A DNA stretch of 64,000 nucleotides from an uncultured Acetobacteraceae bacterium (GCA_903918315.1 CAIXEA010000029.1:22777-86776), one strand, 5' to 3'; positions 33,926 to 56,926 are shown, counted from the stretch's first letter. The notes: generated by a model not told the origin, from the letters alone. Translations and numbers: made by a program.

Positions 33926-34369
33926 ATGTTGTCCCGCCCCCTCCCCGACCTCCAGGCCACCGAAGGCCTGGCCGCCGCCCTGGCCGCGCGGGTGCGCCGC
34001 GGCGATTCGATCCTCCTGTCGGGCCCGCTGGGTGCCGGTAAGTCCGCCTTTGCGCGTGCGTTTCTGCGGGCGCTGACCGCCGATGCGGCGCTGGAAGTGC
34101 CCAGCCCGACCTTCACCCTGGTGCAGAGCTACGACACGCCGCGCGGGCCGGTGCATCACTTCGACCTCTGGCGCCTGACGGATTCAACCGCGATGGCCGA
34201 ACTCGGCTGGGACGACGCCACCGATGACATCGTGCTGGTGGAATGGCCCGACCGCCTGGGCCCGTTGACCCCGGCACGGGCACTGACCCTGACGCTGCGC
34301 ATCACCGGGGACGACTCCCGCGCCGTCACGATCGAAGGCTGGGACGATCGGCTGGGGGACCTGGCATGA
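33926..34369 (+). CDS. tsaE: tRNA t6A biosynthesis ATPase TsaE
   Basis: GPLGAGKS, VPSPTFTLVQ, HFDLWRL and LVEWP motifs. Confidence 0.96.
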   Translation: MLSRPLPDLQATEGLAAALAARVRRGDSILLSGPLGAGKSAFARAFLRALTADAALEVPSPTFTLVQSYDTPRGPVHHFDLWRLTDSTAMAELGWDDATDDIVLVEWPDRLGPLTPARALTLTLRITGDDSRAVTIEGWDDRLGDLA

Positions 34370-35385
34370 CCCGGGATGAGGCTATCGCCGCGTTCCTGCG
34401 CCAGCACGGCCATGAAGCCGCGACCATAACCCCCCTGGCACAGGATGCGAGCTTCCGGCGATATCTCCGCCTGAGCGGCGGCCTTGTACTCATGGACGCC
34501 CCGCCGCCGGAGGACATAACCCCGTTCCTGCGCATCCGCGCCCACCTCGCCGCCATTGGCTTGTCGGTGCCCGGCATCGTCGCGGCGGACGAAACCCAGG
34601 GGCTGCTGCTGGAGGAGGATCTCGGCGACGACCTGTTCGGCAGCATCCTCACCCCCGACAATGCAGCGATGCTGTTCAATGCCGCGGTGGACACGCTGGT
34701 GGCGATCCAAAGGGCGGCGCCACCAGCGGCGTTGCCGGCGTGGAACACCACCATGATGCGCGACACCGCGCTGGGCACGCTGTTCGACTGGTGGTGGCCA
34801 GCGGCGTTTGGCACCCCCGCCCCTGACGACGCCCGCCAGGACGTGGCCGCGGCGTTGACCACCATGCTGGCGCCGCTGGCGGCCGGGCCGACATGTTTTG
34901 TGCACCGCGACTTCTTCGCCGGCAACCTGCTATGGATGCCCAACCGTACCGGCATCCGCCGTGTCGGCCTGATCGACTTCCAGGGCGCCGCCCTCGGACA
35001 TCCCGCTTATGATCTGGTGTCACTGATGCAGGACGCGCGCCGCTCGATTAACCCAACCCATGAGGAACGCGCCCTGCAGCGCTACTGCGCCGCCCGGCCT
35101 GATCAGGATCCATCGGCATTCCGCGCCGCCTATGACGCCTGCGCGGCGCAGCGGCATCTGCGCGTGGCCTGCCAGTGGGTGCGGCTGGCGGTGCGGGATG
35201 GGAAACCGCAGTACCTGGCGTATGGCCCCCGCACCTGGGCACTGCTGGATCGCGCATTGGCCCGCCCGGCCGCGGCGCCATTGGCCGCGGCACTGGATCA
35301 CTGGGTACCTCAGGCCAAACGGGGGAATCCGCCCCTTCAGACGATGGCCGGCGCAGACCCGGCGATGATGGGCAGGAAAGCGTGA
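34366..35385 (+). CDS. amgK: Anomeric MurNAc/GlcNAc kinase (APH family)
   Basis: DASFRRYLR, LLLEEDLGD, HRDFFAGN and IDFQGA motifs; sits between tsaE and murU. Confidence 0.88.
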   Translation: MTRDEAIAAFLRQHGHEAATITPLAQDASFRRYLRLSGGLVLMDAPPPEDITPFLRIRAHLAAIGLSVPGIVAADETQGLLLEEDLGDDLFGSILTPDNAAMLFNAAVDTLVAIQRAAPPAALPAWNTTMMRDTALGTLFDWWWPAAFGTPAPDDARQDVAAALTTMLAPLAAGPTCFVHRDFFAGNLLWMPNRTGIRRVGLIDFQGAALGHPAYDLVSLMQDARRSINPTHEERALQRYCAARPDQDPSAFRAAYDACAAQRHLRVACQWVRLAVRDGKPQYLAYGPRTWALLDRALARPAAAPLAAALDHWVPQAKRGNPPLQTMAGADPAMMGRKA

Positions 35386-36137
35386 GCAACCCCATGACCA
35401 TCCACCCTCGGACTGCCATGGTCCTCGCCGCCGGCCTGGCAACGCGCATGCGGCCGCTGACGGATCACACCGCCAAGCCGCTGCTGATGCTGGGCGGGCA
35501 GACGCTGCTGGATCATGCGCTGGATCGCCTGGCCGAGGCTGGAGTCGAAACCGTGGCCGTCAACGCCTTCTGGCAGGCGGACAAGGTGGCCGCGCACCTG
35601 GCATCCCGCACCAAACCGCCGACGACGGTGCTCCACCGGGAAACGACGTTGCTCGACACGGGCGGGGGGGTGAAGAACGCGCTCGATATCCTCGGCCCGG
35701 ATCCGTTCTACGTGATCAACGGCGACGCGGTCTGGCTGGATGGGCCAACCCCGGCACTGACCCGGCTGGCGCGGGCATGGAGCGATGATGTGGACGCGGT
35801 GCTGCTGCTGCACCGGACATGCCAGATCATGGGGGACGTCGGGCGCGGGGACTTCGCCCTCGATCCGCTGGGCATACCGCGGCGGCGGCGGGAGCGGGAG
35901 ATCGTGCCTTATCTGTTTGCCGGGGTGCAGCTGATGCACCCGCGCCTGATGGACGGCATGCCGGACGATGCGTTCAGCACCAACCGGGCCTGGAACCGGG
36001 CTTTGGACGCCGGCCGCCTGCGCGCGGTGGTGCATGATGGGCACTGGTTCCATCTTTCCACGCCTTCAGACCTGAAAGACGCAGAAGAGGTGATGCTCGC
36101 CCCGGTGACGGGTGACGCGAAATGGCCGTGGCGGTAA
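35382..36137 (+). CDS. murU: MurNAc-1-P uridylyltransferase (nucleotidyltransferase)
   Basis: AMVLAAGLATRMRPLT, KPLL, LDTGGG and INGDA motifs; GTGA overlap with amgK. Confidence 0.88.
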   Translation: MSNPMTIHPRTAMVLAAGLATRMRPLTDHTAKPLLMLGGQTLLDHALDRLAEAGVETVAVNAFWQADKVAAHLASRTKPPTTVLHRETTLLDTGGGVKNALDILGPDPFYVINGDAVWLDGPTPALTRLARAWSDDVDAVLLLHRTCQIMGDVGRGDFALDPLGIPRRRREREIVPYLFAGVQLMHPRLMDGMPDDAFSTNRAWNRALDAGRLRAVVHDGHWFHLSTPSDLKDAEEVMLAPVTGDAKWPWR

Positions 36138-36153
36138 CCAAGGGGCGTTGAAC

Positions 36154-39129
36154 ATGGCGGCGCTGAACCTTTTCACCCTGCCGCCGTATGTCCCCTTTCT
36201 GGACGCTATCGCCGCCGCCTGGCTGGCGCGCGGCGATGACCCATTGCAGATGGCCCGAGGCCTGATCCTGCTGCCAACCCGCCGGGCGGCGCGCGCGCTG
36301 GCGGACGCGTTCCTGCGTCTGTCAGATGGCAAACCGCTGCTGCTGCCGCGGATCACCGCCCTCGGTGCATTGGATGAGGCGCCGCTGACCCTGGCGGGCG
36401 CACTGGACCTGCCGCCGGCGGTCGAGCCGATGCAGCGCCTGGCTGCGCTGACGCGTCTGATCCTGGCGATGGGGGGACGGAACGGCGCGCCGAAGGGCGC
36501 AGACCGGGCATGGCTCCTGGCGCAGGAACTGGCCCAGCTGATGGATGAGGCGGAGCGGGCCGAAATCGACCTCGCCCAGCGGCTGCCGGACGCAGCAGAC
36601 CCGGCCTTTGCTGAGCATTGGGCGGAGACGCTGACGTTTTTGCATATCGTGACGGAGGCCTGGCCGGCCTGGCTGGCCGATAACGGGCTGATGAACCCGG
36701 CGGCACGGCAGGTCGCGCTGCTGAACGCCCAGGCCGAGGCCTGGCGCGATGCCGCGCCGGAGGAGCCCATCCTGATCGCCGGTACCACCGCCGGGGTACC
36801 GGCCGTGGCTCGGCTGCTCGCAGTCGTGGCGCGGCTGCCGGCCGGCCAGGTGGTGTTCCCGGCGCTGGATATGCTGATGGACGATGCCGCCTGGACCGAC
36901 CTGGAGGAATCGCATCCGCAGGCGGGGTTGCAGCGGCTGCTGCATGGGCTCGGTGCGACGCGCGACGATGTCATGCCCTGGCCCTGGCCCCTGCAGCCCG
37001 CCAACGGCGTGCCGGAGGGGCGATTCGCCCTGCTCTCCCGCGCGCTATTGCCGGCCAAGGCGTTGTCGGCATGGCGCCCGATTGCTGATGAGGCGGCCCC
37101 GGACCTGGACGGGATCTGGCGCCTGACGGCCGCGGATCAGCAGGAGGAAGCCGAGGCCATTGCCATCTTGCTGCGTGGCGCGCTCGAAAGCCCCGGCGCG
37201 TCCGCCGCCTTGGTCACACCGGACCGCATGCTGGCCAATCGCGTCACTGCCGCCCTGCTCCGGTATGGCGTGGTCGCCGATGACAGTGCCGGGGAGGAAC
37301 TGGCCGATACCCCGCCCGCGGTGTTCCTGCGCTTGCTGATCCGCGCCGTCGCCGAATCGCTGGCCCCGGTGCCGCTGCTGGCACTGCTGAAACACCCGCT
37401 GGCCGCCGCTGGCCTGTCCCCGGCCGCCTGCCGGCGGGAGGCGCGGGCGCTGGAACTGGCGATCCTGCGCGGACCGCGGCCCAACTCGGGCTTCGCCGGC
37501 ATCCGGATGGCGCTGGATCAGCAAAACGCCCCCGAAGCGATCCAGGCGTTCTGGAAACAGGTGGTCCTATGCCTGGAGCCCGTCCTCCGCATGCAGTCCG
37601 CGGTTGAGTCCAGCCCGCTGGAGGCACTGGCCGCGGTGATCGGGGCCGCTGAACGCCTCGCCGCCACCGATGCAAGCACCGGCCCTGCCCGGCTCTGGTC
37701 CGGCGAAGAGGGTGAAGCGCTGGCAACCCGCCTCTCGGACGTGCTCGCCGCCCTTCCCGGCATGCCGGATCAGAGGTGGGCGGTGCTGCCCGGGTTGCTC
37801 GACGCCGTGCTGCAAGGCGGGGCGGTGCGTGACCGCCGCGCGATGCGGGGGCGCGACGGGTCACTGCATCCGCGCGTGTTCATCTGGGGGCTGCTGGAGG
37901 CGCGGCTGCAAAGTACCGACCTGCTGATCCTCGGTGGCCTGGCGGAGACAGTCTGGCCGCCGGCAACCGACCCCGGCCCCTGGCTGTCGCGGCCGATGCG
38001 AAAAAGCGTCGGGCTGCCCTCACCCGAGGAAATCGTCGGCCAGGCCGCGCATGACTTCGCAGCCACGGTCTGCGCGGCGCGTCAGATCGTTCTGTCCTGC
38101 CCGGAACGCCGAGACGGCGCCCCGGCCGTGCCAGCGCGCTGGCTGACGCGGCTGGAGATGTTCCTGGCCGGACGAAATCTGTCTTTGCCCGCGCATCCCG
38201 CCGCCGCCTGGGTGCGGGCGCTTGATCTGCCGGCGGATGGGCCCCGGCCGGTGCCGCCGCCGCGACCCAACCCGCCTGTCGCACGCCGTCCGCGGAAGCT
38301 GAGCGTGACCGAGATCGAGACCTGGATCCGCGACCCCTACGCAATCTACGCCAGGCACATCCTGAAGCTGAAAGCGCTCGATCCGCTCGACCAACTGACC
38401 GATGCCAGCGATTACGGATCGCTGGTGCATGACGGGATGAAGGCCTTCTACAGCGCCGCCGGGCGGCGCTGGCCCGCCGATGCGCCAGCGCGGCTGCGGG
38501 CCGCCATGGCCAAGACGCTCAAGCAGGCAGGGCTGCGCCCGGCCTTGCAGGCCTGGTGGCGGCCGCGGCTGGATCGCATCGCCGACTGGGTCGCGGAAAT
38601 CGAGGCAGCACGCTGGGCGGCGGATCCGCCGCATGCCATCCGGGCGGAAGTGCCGGGTGCGCTCGATCTTCCGTCCGGCCGTGGTTTCCGGCTGACAGGC
38701 CGGGCGGATCGCATCGATCGGCGGGGCGACGGGACTCTGACGATTTTCGACTACAAGACCGGCACGCTGCCAAAGCAGACCGACGTCGAAACCGGCCTTA
38801 TCCCGCAGTTGCCGCTGGAAGCCGCGATGGCCGCCGCCGGTGCCTTCGGACCCGAAATCTCCGGGGCGGTCACGGAATTGCTCTACTGGCACCTGACCGG
38901 CGGCACCACGCCGGGGGAGTCTTTGCACTTGTTCAAGGGTGCGGCCGCACCCACACAAGCCGCCGCGGCCACCGCGCTGGATCGACTGCGCGGCCTGATC
39001 GATGCCTATGACGACCCGGCCCGCGCCTATCTGTCGCAGCCGCACCCTGGTCAGACGCCGCGCTTCTCGGACTATGTCCAACTTGCCAGAGTCGCGGAAT
39101 GGCAGGCAGCCGGGGACAATGAGGAATGA
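36154..39129 (+). CDS. addB: Double-strand break repair nuclease AddB
   Basis: LLPTRRAARAL, LSVTEIETWIRDPYAIYA and GRADRID...FDYKTG motifs. Confidence 0.96.
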   Translation: MAALNLFTLPPYVPFLDAIAAAWLARGDDPLQMARGLILLPTRRAARALADAFLRLSDGKPLLLPRITALGALDEAPLTLAGALDLPPAVEPMQRLAALTRLILAMGGRNGAPKGADRAWLLAQELAQLMDEAERAEIDLAQRLPDAADPAFAEHWAETLTFLHIVTEAWPAWLADNGLMNPAARQVALLNAQAEAWRDAAPEEPILIAGTTAGVPAVARLLAVVARLPAGQVVFPALDMLMDDAAWTDLEESHPQAGLQRLLHGLGATRDDVMPWPWPLQPANGVPEGRFALLSRALLPAKALSAWRPIADEAAPDLDGIWRLTAADQQEEAEAIAILLRGALESPGASAALVTPDRMLANRVTAALLRYGVVADDSAGEELADTPPAVFLRLLIRAVAESLAPVPLLALLKHPLAAAGLSPAACRREARALELAILRGPRPNSGFAGIRMALDQQNAPEAIQAFWKQVVLCLEPVLRMQSAVESSPLEALAAVIGAAERLAATDASTGPARLWSGEEGEALATRLSDVLAALPGMPDQRWAVLPGLLDAVLQGGAVRDRRAMRGRDGSLHPRVFIWGLLEARLQSTDLLILGGLAETVWPPATDPGPWLSRPMRKSVGLPSPEEIVGQAAHDFAATVCAARQIVLSCPERRDGAPAVPARWLTRLEMFLAGRNLSLPAHPAAAWVRALDLPADGPRPVPPPRPNPPVARRPRKLSVTEIETWIRDPYAIYARHILKLKALDPLDQLTDASDYGSLVHDGMKAFYSAAGRRWPADAPARLRAAMAKTLKQAGLRPALQAWWRPRLDRIADWVAEIEAARWAADPPHAIRAEVPGALDLPSGRGFRLTGRADRIDRRGDGTLTIFDYKTGTLPKQTDVETGLIPQLPLEAAMAAAGAFGPEISGAVTELLYWHLTGGTTPGESLHLFKGAAAPTQAAAATALDRLRGLIDAYDDPARAYLSQPHPGQTPRFSDYVQLARVAEWQAAGDNEE

Positions 39130-39220
39130 GCGCTGTCGGAGCAAATTGCCCAAGCACCGCGCGAGTGGGGTGTTTAGCGCAGGGGCAAAACAGCGCCTCC
39201 TTCACAGATCGGGCCCGCCC

Positions 39221-42200
39221 ATGACCGAGGAATCCCCCCGCGACCGTGCCACTCGGGCGCAACGGGAGGCCTCTGACCCCGCGGTGTCCGCCTTCGTCGC
39301 TGCCTCCGCCGGCTCGGGCAAGACCAAGCTTCTGACCGATCGGCTGCTGCGCCTCATGCTGACCGACGGCGTAAGGCCGGAGCGGATCCAATGTCTGACT
39401 TTCACCAAAGCCGCCGCGGCCGAGATGTCGGTGCGGCTGCAACGCCTGCTCGGCGGTTGGGTGACGATGGACGATCCAACGCTGGACGCGGCGCTGATCG
39501 CGTTGGACATGATCCCGACGCCGTCGCTGCGCCGGACCGCGCGGGCCTTGTTCGCGCGGGTCCTCGATCTGCCCGGCGGCATGCGTATTGGCACCATTCA
39601 TGCCTTCTGCCAGTCCCTGCTGCGCCGGTTCCCCCTGGAAGCCGCGCTATCGCCGCATTTCCAACTGGTGGACGACCGCGATGCCGAGGACGCGCTGACC
39701 GAAGCCCGCGAAGCGATGCTGACCAAAGCCGAAGCCAACCACCTCAACATTGCGCTGGAGTTGCTCGCTGGCCTGTCGAGCGCGGAGCAATTCGGCGCCA
39801 ACGTCAAAACATTGCTGGCCGATCGGGATCGGGTGACCCAGGCGCTGGCGCATCCCGACCTCGCGGGGGCGCAGCGTCGGGCGCTGGGGGTCACGGCCGA
39901 CAGCGCCGATGCGCTGATCGCTTCGGCGGTGAACTGGCAGGAAGAACCCGGCCTTCGCAATGCCGCCCTGATCGTGCGCAGCCTGGGTTCCCCGGGGATC
40001 AAGAAAGCCGCTGAAGCGATGCTGGACTGGCTCAGTTGCGATGCCGAACACCGGTCTGCAAATTGGGATGTGTGGCGCAGCTTGTTCATCACCACGCAAG
40101 ATAAGGTTTTTTCCGCAAAATCCTTTGTCAGCCAGGGAGTTACCAAAGCACATCCGGATCTGGTGGAGATTTTCTTCGCGGAGGGCGAACGCATCCTCGC
40201 TGTGCAGGACTCGCTGCGGGCTTTGAACCTGGCCGAAGCCTCGGCCGCTTTGTTCAGCCTCGCCGCGCCTGTGCTGACAGCCTATGCGGACCACAAAGAG
40301 CGGACCGGGCTGTTGGACTACGACGATCTGATTGGGCGGACGTCGAAGTTATTGCACGATCCGGGGGCCGCCTGGGTGCTGTACAAGCTCGACGGCGGCA
40401 TCGATCATCTGCTGCTCGACGAGGTACAGGATATCGCGCGGCAGCAGTGGCAAATCGCCCACGCCCTTACCGACGAATTCTTTGCTGGTTTCGGCGCGCG
40501 CGACCAGCGGCGCACCGTTTTCGCCGTCGGCGATCCCAAGCAGTCGATCTTTGGATTTCAGGGGGCGGATGTCTCAACATTCGAATCCTCCCGCCGCCGC
40601 CTCGCGACAACGGTGCGCGGCGCCGGGGAGACCTTTGTCGATGTTCCCCTCGATGTGTCCTTCCGTTCAGCCGAACCCGTGCTGGCGCTGGTGGACGCGG
40701 TGTTCGGCGATCCCACCGCCGCCCTGGGCGTGGTTACCCCGGGGGACACTCTGGCCCATTTCGCCAATCGCGCCGGGCATGCGGGGGCGGTGGAGCTCTG
40801 GCCGCTTGCCCCCCTACCCGACGCGGCGAAGCCTGATCCAACCGCCGTGCCGGACAGCAACCAGACCCAGACCGACGCCCCGAAAGCCCTGGCTGACCGG
40901 ATCGCGGACTGGATCAAGGCGCAGACCGACGGCTCGGTCCGGCTTGAAAGCCGAGATCGGCCGTTGCGGCCGGGCGATGTGATGGTGCTGGTGCGCCGGC
41001 GCAACAGCTTCGCCGTTGCGTTGGTGCGGGCGTTGAAAACGCGCGGCGTGCCGGTGGCGGGCATGGACCGGATGGTGCTGACCGATCAGCCGGCGGTGCA
41101 GGACCTGATGGCTCTCGCGGATGCGCTGCTGCTGCCGGAAGACGACCTGACATTTGCCGCCCTGCTGACCAGCCCGCTGGGTGGTCTGGGCGACGACGAC
41201 CTCATGGCACTCTGTATCGACCGGGCCGGCACGGTGGCGGAGGCGTTGCGCCGCCGCGCCACAGAGCGACCCCAGTGGCAGAAGGCCTGGACATTCTTCG
41301 CCACTTTGCAGGCCCGGGTCGATTATGCCACGCCCTATGCCATCCTGGCGGAGGGGCTGGGCGCGTTGGGCGGGCGGGCGCGGTTGCTGGCCCGGCTTGG
41401 CCCGGAAGCGGCGGAGCCGATCGCGGAATTGCTCAACGCGGCGTTGACCTATAGCGCGATCCACCCACCATCCCTGCAAGGGTTCCTGCACTGGATCCGC
41501 CGCTCAGGCGCCGAAGTGAAGCGGGAGGCGGAGGCCGCGGGCAATCTGGTGCGGATCATGACCGTACACGGCGCCAAAGGCCTACAGGCGCCGGTGGTGA
41601 TCGTACCCGACACCACCGCTATGCCGACGGATCGAAATACCATTGTTTGGGCGGACCAGGCCGTGCCCCTCTGGACCCCCAACAAGGCGCTGCGCTGCAA
41701 GGCGGTAGAGCATATTCGGGCCGACGCATTCCAGCGGGAAATCGCGGAATACAACCGCTTGCTTTATGTCGCTCTAACCCGCGCCGAAGACCGGCTGATC
41801 ATCTGCGGCTGGCAGACAAAGCGGGGTATCAGCGATGCCAGTTGGTACAGGGCTGCTGAGCGCGGATTCGCTCGGATAGCAGCGTCCGAAGAAGCATTTG
41901 GCAGTTGGGGCGTGCTGCGGCGGTTCGCCGCCCCGCAAATCGCCGTCCCCAGTGTGGGACCGTCCGGCCACACGGCCCCAAATCCTGAACCGTTGCCCGC
42001 CTGGATTGGCCGCTCACCGGACTGGACCGCCGCGCCCGCGCCGTTGGAACCCGCTCGGCCGCAGCCTTTGGCCCCAAGCCGGCCAGATGGTGGGGAACTG
42101 GGAACGGTGCCGGAAGTGGCTTCGCCTTTGGCCGAACGGATGGAACAAGGCGACCGGTTCCGCCGGGGCCAACTGATCCACGGGTTGTTGCAGCATCTGC

Positions 42201-51379: not shown

Positions 51380-52915
51380 ATGCGATCGTCCTTGCTCGCC
51401 TTGCCGAGCCGGCTGTCCGGTTGGAGCGCAGTTTGGCTGACATTCAGCCTTGGCGCGCTCAGCGCTGCCGCATTGCCGCCCCTCCATGTGCTTCCGGTGC
51501 TGCTGGTGAGCGTACCAGGATTACTGACCCTGATTGGCCGATCAGATCACGCTGCGATGGCATTTCGCCGCGGCTGGTGGTTTGGGTTCGGCCTTAACCT
51601 GTTGGGGCTTTATTGGGTAACCGAGGCGATTCTGATTGAGGGCGAACGGTTCTGGTGGCTCGTGCCCCTCGCTGTTCCGGCCTTGGCCGCGGTCATGGCC
51701 GTGTTCATTGGGCTTGCGACGATGGGAACACGGCTGGCATCGGCGGGCTGGCGGCGAATCCTGATGCTGGCGGGCTGCTGGACGGCCATGGACCTCGCCC
51801 GCCAGTTCGTGCTGACGGGCTTTCCGTGGAACCCACTGGGGAGCGTCTGGGCTGTTCCCGGCCCCATCGGCGATGTCATGATCCAACCGGCGGCCTGGGT
51901 GAGCGTGCATGGCCTGACTCTATTGACGGTGCTTCTGGCCGCGGCACCCACACTGGGCTGGCAAGGCTGGGCCGCGGCGGGGATCAGCATTCTGCTCTGG
52001 GCCGGTTTTGGGGCGTCGCCGCCGTCACAGCCTGCGCAATCACCGGGTGCACGAATGGTCGTGGCGCAGGGCAACGTGCCGCAGGGCCAGAAATGGGACC
52101 GATCCCTGATCGACAGCACGTTCGATCGCTACCTCCGCTTGACGGCGGAGGGGATCCAACGCGCTGGCCCAGGTACCACCGTCGTGCTTTGGCCGGAGAC
52201 CGCCTCCCCCTATCAATTGGCGACCGATGCCGGCGCCCGCATGGCTATCAGCGATGTCATCGGCGATGCCATCGCGCTGATCGGCGCCGTTCGCTTCGGG
52301 GCGGAAGGCAGACCTCGTAACAGCCTGTTTGCCCTCGCGTCCGGCGGATTGATCACGCAGATCTACGACAAAGCCCATCTCGTACCCTTTGGGGAATACC
52401 AGCCTGACTGGCTGGCGATCGGCATCCAGCTCGTGCCCGGGGGGGGCTTCATGCCTGGACCGGGGCCAACAACGCTGTCCCCCCCAGGCATTCCCCCGGT
52501 CGGACCGCAGATCTGCTACGAGATCATCTTCCCTGGCCAGATCGTGGACGAAGCGAATCGCCCCGCCTGGATCGCCAATGTGACCAATGACGCATGGTTC
52601 GGTAATTCCTCCGGGCCGCGTCAGCATTTGGCGGCGGCACGGATGCGCGCGGTGGAAGAAGGGCTCCCCCTGGTCCGGGCGGCAAATACCGGCATATCGG
52701 CGGTGTTCGACGGGCGCGGTCATGAGATCGCGCGACTCGGCATGCGTGAAACGGGGACGATTGTGACGGACCTGCCACCAGCCCTGCCGCCAACCATATT
52801 TGCCCGGTTTGGATTGGCCTTGCCGGCGGTTATGGCCTTGACGGCCATCATAAGTGCGATGATCGGCGCCAATCCGTGGGATCGACGGGTTCAGCGACGT
52901 TCCAGAAACACTTAA
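51380..52915 (+). CDS. lnt: Apolipoprotein N-acyltransferase
   Basis: WPET, KAHLVPFGEY, QICYE, NVTNDAWFG and RAANTGIS motifs. Confidence 0.96.
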   Translation: MRSSLLALPSRLSGWSAVWLTFSLGALSAAALPPLHVLPVLLVSVPGLLTLIGRSDHAAMAFRRGWWFGFGLNLLGLYWVTEAILIEGERFWWLVPLAVPALAAVMAVFIGLATMGTRLASAGWRRILMLAGCWTAMDLARQFVLTGFPWNPLGSVWAVPGPIGDVMIQPAAWVSVHGLTLLTVLLAAAPTLGWQGWAAAGISILLWAGFGASPPSQPAQSPGARMVVAQGNVPQGQKWDRSLIDSTFDRYLRLTAEGIQRAGPGTTVVLWPETASPYQLATDAGARMAISDVIGDAIALIGAVRFGAEGRPRNSLFALASGGLITQIYDKAHLVPFGEYQPDWLAIGIQLVPGGGFMPGPGPTTLSPPGIPPVGPQICYEIIFPGQIVDEANRPAWIANVTNDAWFGNSSGPRQHLAAARMRAVEEGLPLVRAANTGISAVFDGRGHEIARLGMRETGTIVTDLPPALPPTIFARFGLALPAVMALTAIISAMIGANPWDRRVQRRSRNT

Positions 52916-53075
52916 CAAAACCCACAAACACGCCAATTAATCTTTTTTAAGATTTTTCTATCGCGCAAACAGCGCATTGTTGACAATTCTCGGTTGTGGT
53001 TTTAACACCAGCTCGCCATACAGACGGCAATCGCGCGTCATCAATGACATTTTCACGCTTGGATGTCGCTTAACT
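52911..53075. promoter_or_regulatory. AT-rich regulatory region of the XRE gene with palindromes and several TTAA half-sites
   Basis: AATCTT-TTTT-AAGATT (52939-52954); ATTGTTGACAAT containing TTGACA (52980-52985). Confidence 0.5.
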
Positions 53076-54860: not shown

Positions 54861-55925
54861 TCACTGAACCGGCCAGTCGATCTCCGGCAGGCGCAGGAGC
54901 GGTACCTGGCGCATCGACAAGGTGCGAAACTGCAGCGTGAGTGGCACATCGACATCCGGTGTCTCCCCTTCTGCTGGCGTGCCGGCAAGCAATGAGAGCA
55001 CGGCCTTGGCGGCGGTGACCGCTGATCGGGTCAACACACCAGAATCCGCGAGGGCATCCAGAGTGGCACCATAGCCCGTTACATGCGAATTGCCCGCACC
55101 CATCGGCTGCAACTGGTCATCCAAAGCGAGGGTCGCGGAAGCCGCCAGATTGAGCGGCCCCCAGGCCAGAACCAGCCGCTGAACCTCGACCGAACCGCCG
55201 CCGTCACGCCAGGAAGCGGCCCAAGGCGTTAGTCCCTGGATGGGTGGCAGTGGCCCAACGACGCCACCCTCTGCTGCCAGCGAAGCCAGCCGCGCCCCAA
55301 GCGGCCAATGCACCACGGGCGGTAACGCGATGTCACTGGCCTCGATAGAGAATTGGATCACTTTGTCGCCCGGTCCGGCCAGAGGCTCAAATCCAAGATG
55401 CGCGCGCGCTTGGGCAATCGCGAACCCCTGGGCCTTAGCGAGCCCAGGTGCCGGCCCGTTCGCTCCGCCAGGATTGGCACGGAGGTTGGATAACAGCACC
55501 TCAAACTCACGCGATTCGTCATTGGACGCGAGGGTGGTGCCAGCGGCGAAGCGATCTGCCTCGATTCGGACCTCGGGCAATCCGGGCAGACGCAACCGTT
55601 GGGTTCCCTCCACTTCGATTTCCAGAAATCGCGGGTCTGAAAGGGCGACCGACAAAGTGATCCTGGAGGCCTGCCAGACGAACATGGGCGTGCGCGCCGG
55701 GTCGGCACCGATGACCAATTCCCCGATCGTCAAACGGGCCGCGAATGGCCACCCCGCCGAATGCGTGCGCCCATGCGCTATGGTGAGACCAACGGTCCGC
55801 ATGCGATCCGCCCAAGCCTCGAATCCCGCCTCAAGGCGCTTCGCCGCGATTTCCCAAAGGATCGCGTCGGCGATGAACAAGGCCGCCATCAATGACACGG
55901 CGAGGATCCAGACCCTGCGTCTCAT
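54861..55925 (-). CDS. DUF2125 domain protein
   Basis: N-terminal TM, AGWPFAARL, WGPL...LALDDQLQPMG and C-terminal VPLTL...LP.IDW motifs. Confidence 0.82.
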   Translation of the reverse strand: MRRRVWILAVSLMAALFIADAILWEIAAKRLEAGFEAWADRMRTVGLTIAHGRTHSAGWPFAARLTIGELVIGADPARTPMFVWQASRITLSVALSDPRFLEIEVEGTQRLRLPGLPEVRIEADRFAAGTTLASNDESREFEVLLSNLRANPGGANGPAPGLAKAQGFAIAQARAHLGFEPLAGPGDKVIQFSIEASDIALPPVVHWPLGARLASLAAEGGVVGPLPPIQGLTPWAASWRDGGGSVEVQRLVLAWGPLNLAASATLALDDQLQPMGAGNSHVTGYGATLDALADSGVLTRSAVTAAKAVLSLLAGTPAEGETPDVDVPLTLQFRTLSMRQVPLLRLPEIDWPVQ

Positions 55926-56089
55926 GCGTCTCCATGCCACACAGGATGGTCTTTCAGGTCGAGGGTCGGATGTCTCGGTTCGTCCCAAGCCACCTAATAG
56001 GACAGCGCCGATCCCAAAGTAAGTCCGGCGTGCTGGTAAATCAGGGCGCTTGTCGGAATTTTCATGATCACGGCGCGCAAACGGTGCAT

Positions 56090-56222
56090 TTACCCCCAAC
56101 ATCCACGGTCTCTTTCGGGCCTGTGGATAAACACTATTGTTATAAACAAAACAATACTATGGGGACCTTACCTCGTTTATTATGAGAATTGTGACAGTGC
56201 TTAGCTCACAGAGTTACCCACA
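56090..56222. other. Candidate replication origin: DnaA boxes flanking an AT-rich core
   Basis: Perfect TGTGGATAA (56122-56130), TTACCCACA (56214-56222), weaker boxes at 56090-56107; only 6 G/C in 56131-56160. Confidence 0.5.
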
Positions 56223-56926
56223 GGGCCTGTTGGTGGGTCGATCGTCTGTTCCAGCGCGTGTTTGAGGCGTTCCATCAGTTCGTCGCGCGGCAAACCAACC
56301 GGGAGCGCTGGCAGGATCTTCACATGAATCGTGCCTGGATATTTGTGAAAGGCACGCCGTCCCCAACGCAGTCCAGAGTCCGTGATCACCGGAATGACCG
56401 GCATTTTGGTGCGGGTCGCCAAAGCGGCGACACCGGGTTGCAACGGCAGCAAGGCGCCGGGTGGCGCGCGGGTGCCTTCCGGGAAAATGACGATCTGGCG
56501 CCCGTCCTGGATCACACGCTGCCCCTGCCTGACCAATTCCCGGATGGTGCGGGCCCCGCCTTCCCGGTCAACGGCGATCATATCGGTCGCCTTCATGAGA
56601 GGCCCCATGAGCGGGATCCGCAGCAGTTCCTTTTTCAAGACATAGCAACAGCGTGGCAGCAGCGTGAACCAGACCAGAGTATCAAAGGCCGACTGATGGC
56701 GGGACGCGATCAGGGCCGGACCTGGGGGAAGATTCTCTTGCCCGGACACGTCCAGCCGAATGCCGCAGATCACCCGCGCCGACCAGATTCCAAGGCTTGA
56801 CCAGGCGACCGCGATCGGGAGGAGTTTGGTCGGCACGACAAGACGCATGACGCCTCCGATGAGGCTCAGGATCGCCGTGCCGCCGAAGAATACGATGTAA
56901 AAGAGGAAGGATCGTATCACAATCAT
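56201..56926 (-). CDS. plsC: 1-acyl-sn-glycerol-3-phosphate acyltransferase family
   Basis: HQSAFDT, KKEL, VDR and IFPEGTR motifs. Confidence 0.9.
   Translation of the reverse strand: MIVIRSFLFYIVFFGGTAILSLIGGVMRLVVPTKLLPIAVAWSSLGIWSARVICGIRLDVSGQENLPPGPALIASRHQSAFDTLVWFTLLPRCCYVLKKELLRIPLMGPLMKATDMIAVDREGGARTIRELVRQGQRVIQDGRQIVIFPEGTRAPPGALLPLQPGVAALATRTKMPVIPVITDSGLRWGRRAFHKYPGTIHVKILPALPVGLPRDELMERLKHALEQTIDPPTGPVGNSVS

Follow-up and report, generated by a model that had tools for sequence, protein, structure and literature searches.

Does a perfect DnaA box beside AT-rich DNA mark the chromosomal origin of an uncultured Acetobacteraceae bacterium, or does it belong to another kind of DnaA-dependent element? 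The question arises from a 64,000-nt stretch of its genome (GCA_903918315.1 CAIXEA010000029.1:22777-86776; hereafter the window), in which an initial annotation read the region at 55926-56225 as a candidate origin adjoining the ftsEX-ydcF-plsC operon and named a DnaA-regulated promoter or titration site as the alternative. Knowledge of how non-coding chromosomal sites (datA, DARS1 and DARS2) control DnaA comes almost entirely from E. coli, and for Alphaproteobacteria the prevailing view is that DnaA is regulated chiefly through HdaA-dependent inactivation, proteolysis and CtrA. Comparison of the locus with its counterparts in related genomes favours the class of explanation that had been offered as the alternative. 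The region holds a single-copy module with a conserved three-part anatomy, fixed spacing and a constant neighbouring gene, and its location is not that of an origin.

The locus and its DnaA boxes

The assembly (G000) consists of 241 contigs with a total of 5.04 Mb and a GC content of 65%; among named records the closest, at 68% PlsC identity, is a MAG that goes by 'uncultured Acetobacteraceae bacterium'. Pfam searches bear out the gene calls of the initial annotation: ftsE, ftsX, a DUF218 (ydcF-like) gene and plsC form one minus-strand run, the last gene of which is plsC (56201..56926, minus strand; 1-acylglycerol-3-phosphate acyltransferase type; Pfam Acyltransferase, 1.2e-26). A gene of the DUF2125 family, which to our knowledge is unstudied, follows on the same strand (54861..55925; Pfam DUF2125, 2.7e-37) and encodes a protein of 354 aa with an N-terminal membrane anchor. 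As the true start of this gene is the ATG at 55925 (MRRRVWILAV...), the spacer between plsC and DUF2125 extends over 55926-56200. A remote relationship connects the DUF2125 family with Chorein-N/AsmA-type lipid-transfer domains (PMC6791001).

Every sequence feature named for this region by the initial annotation is present. The perfect DnaA box TGTGGATAA (56122..56130, plus strand) is the sole perfect box in the 64-kb window, a finding that is not significant alone, since at least one such box occurs in 15% of shuffles. The whole 5-Mb genome contains 19 perfect DnaA boxes, and clusters of more than two boxes (at most one mismatch) were found nowhere across its 5.04 Mb. A one-mismatch box (TTACCCACA) occupies 56214-56222, within the codons of the plsC tail (PVGNSVS*), and two weak boxes lie at 56090-98 (TTACCCCCA) and 56099-107 (ACATCCACG). 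The AT-rich DNA around which these boxes sit (GC 0.33 over 80 bp) has the lowest GC of all 80-bp windows in the 64 kb; its description as the most AT-rich stretch therefore holds at this window size, while at other sizes it ranks only second or third. Inside this AT-rich spacer is the inverted repeat TATTGTT-N8-AACAATA (56135-41 and 56150-56), the right arm of which coincides with the TTG core of the IHF-like site described below. Relatives do not conserve this repeat as such, nor the trio-like TACTAT/CACTAT motifs.

A conserved module upstream of DUF2125

Fixed length and recurrence in relatives delimit a DnaA/IHF-type module of 133 bp (56090..56222, minus strand), which is read from box 1 to box 2. 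Box 1 (56207..56222, minus strand) has the form of a 'double DnaA box', TGTGGGTAA-CTC-TGTG, and overlaps the last plsC codons. Its strong box (56214-56222), with one mismatch here, is perfect in many relatives and matches TTATCCACA at 9/9 or 8/9 positions in most species; a 3-bp spacer separates it from the vestige of a second box, in which TGTG alone is retained. The 16-mer so formed, TGTGG(A/G)TAA-CTC-TGTG, is near-invariant in 54 genus copies, and its reverse complement ACAGAGTTATCCACAG is, in relatives, identical at 16/16 positions to box R4 of E. coli oriC with its flank. The 'tandem-box pattern' that had been suspected in the plsC tail is borne out as a true double DnaA box, and its 3-bp spacing is the pair geometry preferred by E. 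coli DnaA in vivo at ChIP-defined 'double DnaA box' sites (PMC11317965). The proposal that DnaA sites have shaped the last plsC codons also withstands comparison: where the motif lies inside plsC, the tails VDNSV or VGNSV are forced, in other cases the motif is placed just past the stop codon, and the adjacent codons vary.

An IHF-like site, here CATAGTATTGTTT (56149..56161, minus strand), always starts 45-46 nt past the 16-mer. Its genus consensus, YAA-N4-TTGAW, is the complement of the IHF consensus (IBS) WATCAANNNNTTR (PMC10380432). Among the 54 copies, the site keeps A63 (52/54), T69 (41), T70 (43), G71 (38) and A72 (36), and the strict form YAA-N4-TTGAW is found in 19/54 copies against 0.03 expected in shuffles. 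The site lies midway between the box centres, with arms of ~62 and ~61 bp. Box 2, here TGGGGGTAA (56090..56098, minus strand), is a weaker box that points the same way as box 1, with the genus consensus C-TG(G/T)GGAT(G/A)A; among the 12 loci with a clean first hit, its distance past the 16-mer is 106-108 nt in 11 and 120 nt in G003, and by eye it keeps the same register in the remaining six loci. The layout is accordingly box 1, 45 nt, IHF-like site, ~50 nt and box 2, the two boxes being head-to-tail and 124 bp apart. In the spacer between these anchors, length and low GC (0.34-0.50) are kept and sequence is not. The position of the module relative to the plsC stop ranges from -51 to +61 nt and its distance from the DUF2125 ATG from 77 to 325 nt, with the internal geometry constant throughout; a fixed internal geometry combined with floating gene distances indicates that the module is independent of the flanking genes.

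The distribution of the module was assessed by searching 77 genomes of the genus with a gapped pattern and with the reversed pattern as control. The module pattern was found in 57/77 genomes, as compared to 4/77 for the reversed control, and in 38/44 of the good-quality genomes; nearly always there is exactly one match per genome, and in most of the 57 it spans 129-131 nt. A lone box carries no significance, and the case for more than chance is made by the recurrence in 57/77 genomes. Outside the genus, 22/400 genomes of the class match, and several of these matches are obvious tandem-box arrays. Gene order is equally instructive: plsC is followed by DUF2125 in 19/24 genus relatives sampled, and the module stands directly upstream of DUF2125 in every case checked (the 19/24 genus loci with both genes, as well as G087, G090, G092 and G020). 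In G020, an inversion of 22 kb has parted the module from plsC, and the module is still with DUF2125. In a second family, all three sampled genomes (3/3) have a module-like hit of the same length 1.8-1.9 kb upstream of a DUF2125 homologue.

The perfect box of this genome is no part of the conserved anatomy. Although its presence at 56122-56130 is confirmed, it is missing from the corresponding intergenic regions of 17 other relatives, and its orientation is opposite to that of boxes 1 and 2. With its flank, it forms a 14-nt inverted repeat (86%) with box 1 and the flank of box 1 (GGGCCTGTGGATAA versus TTACCCACAGGGCC), and it thus looks like a local inverted copy of these, peculiar to this genome.

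Boxes of the same type recur elsewhere in the genome. Matches to the 16-mer with at most two mismatches number four, against none for the reversed control. Two of these four R4-type boxes are placed ~95 bp upstream of gcrA (Pfam GcrA, 2.9e-28) and ~95 bp upstream of uvrC, respectively, and the uvrC upstream region contains a second DnaA-box pair (C155:81564 and 81710). In Caulobacter, gcrA is a documented DnaA-activated target (PMC8203912). Owing to the excess of extended matches (4 versus 0) and the locations at gcrA and uvrC, box 1 is very probably a real DnaA site.

Other identities for the conserved motifs were tried and set aside. A scan of the module detected no sigma-70-like promoter, and when the TTGAT of the IHF-like site was taken as a -35 element, no consistent -10 was seen by eye. 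A sigma-54 promoter at box 2 was rejected, the GG-N10-GC signature being visible by eye in two loci only. An RNA element was likewise rejected, with no Rfam match and zero consensus fold on either strand.

Strand polarity and the origin question

An origin at this site would differ from the hemE-linked origin known in Caulobacter and rhizobia, and the module would then be the oriC of the lineage, relocated from that position. Several observations are in line with such a relocation. The region combines a strong box, further weak boxes, an IHF-like site and an AT-rich stretch among the top three of the window; the module is single-copy and conserved; hemE and yqfL are unlinked here and lack adjacent boxes; and the assembly offers no better box cluster. 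The decisive evidence against it comes from strand polarity: neither GC skew, nor orientation-corrected GC3 skew, nor KOPS polarity has a minus-to-plus switch at the site in this genome.

GC skew alone is a poor instrument in this lineage, with contigs of this genome typically at plus or minus 0.03; the large-scale GC skew of G001 and G003 (whole-contig, coarse-sampled) is flat or a plus/minus mosaic and hence uninformative. A clearer signal is provided by the most strand-biased octamers on the skew-oriented contigs of this genome, GGGCAGGG (80 to 14) and GGGGAGGG (55 to 8), which together represent the KOPS family GGGNAGGG, 81% of which lies on the leading strand here. At the module, KOPS polarity has the same sign on both sides in five genomes, as seen from the plus/minus counts to the left and right, respectively, in G000 (2/13 and 0/2), G001 (20/6 and 17/4), G011 (3/16 and 3/14), G020 (10/2 and 5/0) and G023 (3/6 and 3/8); the counts in G006 and G015 are uninformative. 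In relatives with informative counts, GGGNAGGG polarity is a clearer guide at this site than GC skew. G011 has a strong and clean GC/GC3 skew that is uniformly positive for 100 kb on either side of the module, and in G003 GC and GC3 skew are uniform over the sampled 20-kb flanks. On its left side, the site in G000 has a positive GC3 skew, which is the wrong sign, and on its right a skew of ~0, a wrong pattern for an origin; the cumulative skew minimum of C29, the contig of this locus, is found ~27 kb away.

In two near-complete relatives, the origin-type flip maps far from the module. In G092, GGGCAGGGY occurs 16 times on the minus and 4 times on the plus strand over 1.36-1.80 Mb and then 36/36 times on the plus strand over 1.86-2.99 Mb; the flip thus falls at 1.80-1.86 Mb, with dnaA at 1.808 Mb, and the module, at 4.094 Mb, is 2.25 Mb away. 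In G087 (a single contig), GGGCAGGGC is found 48 minus/2 plus up to 1.38 Mb and 38 plus/12 minus from there to 3.78 Mb, with the flip at 1.38-1.41 Mb and the module 1.2 Mb away at 2.615 Mb, with plus hits on its left. The distance between dnaA and the module is 2.1-2.4 Mb in the near-complete G092, G087 and G090, and in the present genome dnaA (on C74), hemE (C150) and yqfL (C152) are all unlinked to the module.

Comparison with established origins shows both likenesses and differences. Box 1 with its flank resembles R4-C1 of E. coli oriC, in which R4 is followed after a 3-bp spacer by a neighbouring weak site, and the head-to-tail boxes with an IHF(-like) site between them recall the left half, R1-IBS1-R5M. 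Unlike E. coli oriC, the module is without a strand-asymmetry switch, a multi-box array or linkage to origin markers, and its AT-rich DNA lies between the boxes and not outside them. Two conserved boxes, a half box and one genome-specific box are fewer than typical origins possess. In Azospirillum, an oriC with six boxes occupies the interval from yqfL to hemE (bioRxiv 10.64898/2026.09.14.751567). With the hemE/yqfL-linked origins of Caulobacter, rhizobia and Azospirillum, the module shares DnaA boxes, an IHF(-like) site, AT-rich DNA and an alphaproteobacterial host; it differs in that hemE and yqfL are on other contigs here and in that the polarity tests exclude an origin at the module. Uniform polarity at the site, together with flips 1.2-2.25 Mb away, means that the module is not an origin, so that the reading as oriC is rejected with near certainty and a relocated oriC retains only the slightest probability. 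Nor is the module a terminus.

The true oriC of this assembly was not located by the searches made. Canonical parS sites (at most two mismatches) are absent from the assembly; hemE is followed by hemH and has no DnaA boxes alongside; and the 80-bp gap upstream of yqfL is devoid of DnaA boxes. In G011, yqfL lies within uniformly skewed DNA, with a terminus-type switch ~70 kb away. The rpsT-dnaA spacer is AT-rich, yet has no DnaA box at up to two mismatches. A change-point scan of all contigs returned many weak origin-like points, with C29 outside the top 12. A palindromic pair of perfect boxes (C221:14480/14491) by a 300-bp AT-rich tract, downstream of citrate synthase, was considered and rejected, skew and KOPS being uniformly plus there. 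Another DnaA-box locus, C99:64158-64230, was also inspected. In calling an origin in this lineage, it does not suffice that a perfect DnaA box adjoins AT-rich DNA.

Candidate roles of the module

We know of no datA or DARS element in Alphaproteobacteria. The explanation that we place first, tentatively and at somewhat less than even chances, is that the module belongs to the datA/DARS class, as a single-copy, datA-like element of ~133 bp for DnaA-IHF looping and docking. In E. coli datA, DnaA boxes are arranged around one IHF site with critical spacing, and an IHF-dependent loop joins the box-bound DnaA (PMC10380432). The layout of the module is of this kind, with boxes on both sides of a single, predicted IHF-like site and with conserved spacing; like datA, the module is also short, non-coding, non-origin and single-copy, and the two are similar in size (~133 bp, as compared to 187 bp for the minimal datA).

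From this anatomy, we infer binding of DnaA and IHF, formation of a loop and an effect on DnaA. DnaA would nucleate on the high-affinity R4-type double box (TGTGGRTAA-CTC-TGTG), and IHF, on the consensus-like site midway, would bend the AT-rich spacer into a hairpin. The bend would set the weaker, same-orientation box 124 bp off face to face with the first, the distal box being expected on the same helical face about 12 turns from box 1, and a DnaA-IHF-DnaA loop could then close. Such a loop would probably regulate how much DnaA is free or active, whether through titration or through inactivation as at datA, and transcription of DUF2125 next to it may be affected as well.

The datA-like reading is favoured by the near-invariant 16-mer, the fixed offset of the IHF-like site, the locked position of box 2 and the lack of promoter, Rfam or RNA-fold signals in the module. 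Against it, conservation extends to no more than a strong box, a half box and a distal box, whereas three boxes (7, 2 and 3) are required in datA. Furthermore, datA is origin-proximal, whereas the module lies 1.2-2.3 Mb from the origin-type flip, at relative positions that differ between G087 and G092, and the lineage is a different one (Alphaproteobacteria). The unbroken linkage to DUF2125 would suit a gene-regulatory role equally well. E. coli DARS1 and DARS2 are also non-origin DnaA-box elements, and DARS2 uses IHF too; their defining core, a head-to-head, adjacent pair of boxes I and II with box III, is however absent from the conserved module, in which the only box of opposite orientation is genome-specific and stands 83 nt from box 1. 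The more specific proposal that the module is a functional counterpart of datA, with a DnaA-IHF loop inactivating or sequestering the initiator after initiation, perhaps with the box pair upstream of uvrC as a DARS-like partner, is possible and, on balance, unlikely.

A close rival of the datA-like reading, with which it is not mutually exclusive, is that the module is a DnaA/IHF-dependent, far-upstream regulatory region of DUF2125, in which DnaA would act as a transcription factor and be brought to a downstream promoter by the IHF bend; we give this about one chance in three. Gene linkage supports it: wherever this was checked, DUF2125 comes immediately after the module, which remained with DUF2125 and not with plsC after the inversion in G020, and another family has a module-like hit of the same length upstream of its DUF2125 homologue. 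Double boxes are characteristic of DnaA regulon sites, and the R4-type boxes upstream of gcrA (a DnaA target) and uvrC in this genome fit the same role. In the 3-bp spacing of its pair and its position upstream of a gene, the module is like the DnaA-regulon promoter sites of Caulobacter gcrA, ftsZ and podJ and the double boxes of E. coli (PMC11317965), in which paired boxes are 2-3 bp apart; here the pair reads TGTGGRTAA-CTC-TGTGnnnnn, its second box being weak. It differs from such sites in its long and variable distance from the gene start and in having an additional second box in a symmetric, IHF-centred arrangement. The variation of the module-ATG distance counts against DUF2125 control, as does the lack of a sigma-70-type promoter by scan. 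Moreover, the nearest relatives share only one promoter-like block (GGTTCCTCT...CCTATAAG), and its place ~90 nt beyond box 2 would put the module at about -105 to -235, and simple activation does not call for a symmetric, spacing-locked box-IHF-box layout. If this reading is correct, expression of a putative envelope protein of the lipid-transfer type is tied to the replication cycle, and the lipid-transfer kinship of DUF2125 would make biological sense beside plsC and ftsEX.

It is improbable that the motifs serve a role unrelated to DnaA, either as the operator of a TGTG-N8-TGTG regulator or as a functionless, decaying relic of a tandem DnaA-box array. DnaA binding to the module is a prediction from sequence, perfect boxes are not enriched genome-wide over the reversed control in relatives, and the 12-nt unit TGTGGATAACTC, which forms tandem arrays in other alphaproteobacteria (for example, G283 and G356), is a possible source of such a relic. 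These points are outweighed by the quality of the box (9/9 or 8/9 to TTATCCACA in most species, and 16/16 to R4 with its flank), by the occurrence of extended matches at classic DnaA-regulon genes with none in the control, and by the strict spacing, the conservation of which across 57 species argues for current selection.

Non-origin DnaA-IHF sites are known in kind and, as far as the literature was searched, such an element is undescribed for this class. At the least, the module would add a member to the DnaA regulon and link an envelope (lipid-transfer-like) gene beside ftsEX-plsC with the replication cycle. If it is a functional counterpart of datA, non-coding loci that control the DnaA cycle exist well outside the enterobacteria, with an anatomy that can be read from sequence. 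A spacing-locked box-IHF-box module that is found genus-wide and echoed in a second family thus provides a testable candidate DnaA-control site for the class.

Composition along the window and strand polarity in relatives

Over approximately 23 kb (window 6200-29200; 29-52 kb of the contig, CAIXEA010000029.1), the orientation-corrected GC3 skew is strongly negative, and positive blocks lie on both sides. Along the contig, cumulative skew reaches its lowest value at the right edge of this negative block, which may represent an inverted or acquired segment. The GC content is elevated at window 34000-40000 (0.67-0.72 vs. 0.64 for the whole window). Two further spots rank among the most AT-rich of the window (GC 0.28-0.35 over 60-100 bp), located at 1214-1330 and at 52904-53000, the latter lying between genes for an HTH_3 regulator and an lnt-like protein.

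Among relatives of the same genus, dnaA of the near-complete genome G092 (1.81 Mb) coincides with the origin-type flip (minus to plus) in the strand bias of KOPS-type octamers. In the single-contig genome G087, dnaA (0.523 Mb) is located ~0.87 Mb from this flip (1.38-1.41 Mb), a separation reflecting either a rearranged chromosome or a shift of dnaA relative to oriC. GC skew and KOPS polarity are concordant in the other genomes, while they carry opposite signs on two contigs of the relative G011: on C10, the skew is +0.03 to +0.10, yet GGGNAGGG is found 6 times in plus and 30 times in minus orientation; on C7, the skew is -0.06 to -0.16, yet the counts are 21 plus and 6 minus.

Repeats and DnaA boxes elsewhere in the genome

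A REP- or MITE-like element of ~110 nt, with the hairpin TTAGAGCATG...CATGCTCTAA as its core, is repeated in intergenic regions of the genome under study (C99:64285-64400, C221:13480-13595, C150:39165-39205 and C150:41455-41500); no copies were found within the 64-kb window.

Outside the window, contig C221 (14200-14520) also harbours DnaA boxes arranged as a perfect palindromic pair, caggcTGTGGATAAtgTTATCCACAgcctg, adjoining an AT-rich tract of ~300 bp (GC 0.31-0.46) downstream of citrate synthase. Since both skew and KOPS are plus throughout this contig, the locus is no obvious origin. On contig C155 (81560-81720, likewise outside the window), two DnaA boxes in the same orientation, 146 bp apart and separated by an AT-rich spacer, lie immediately upstream of uvrC (ATG at 81806): TTATCCACG at 81564 and the perfect box TTATCCACA at 81710, the latter with an R4-type flank (as in box R4 of E. 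coli oriC), CTCACATACTTATCCACAGG.

A DnaA box upstream of gcrA

An R4-type DnaA box, ACAGAGTTGTCCACAA, is present on contig C74 (83349-83364), again outside the window, ~95 bp upstream of a gene identified as a gcrA homologue (Pfam GcrA, 2.9e-28). The position of this box suggests that the DnaA-to-GcrA link of Caulobacter is retained in the lineage of this uncultured Acetobacteraceae bacterium.
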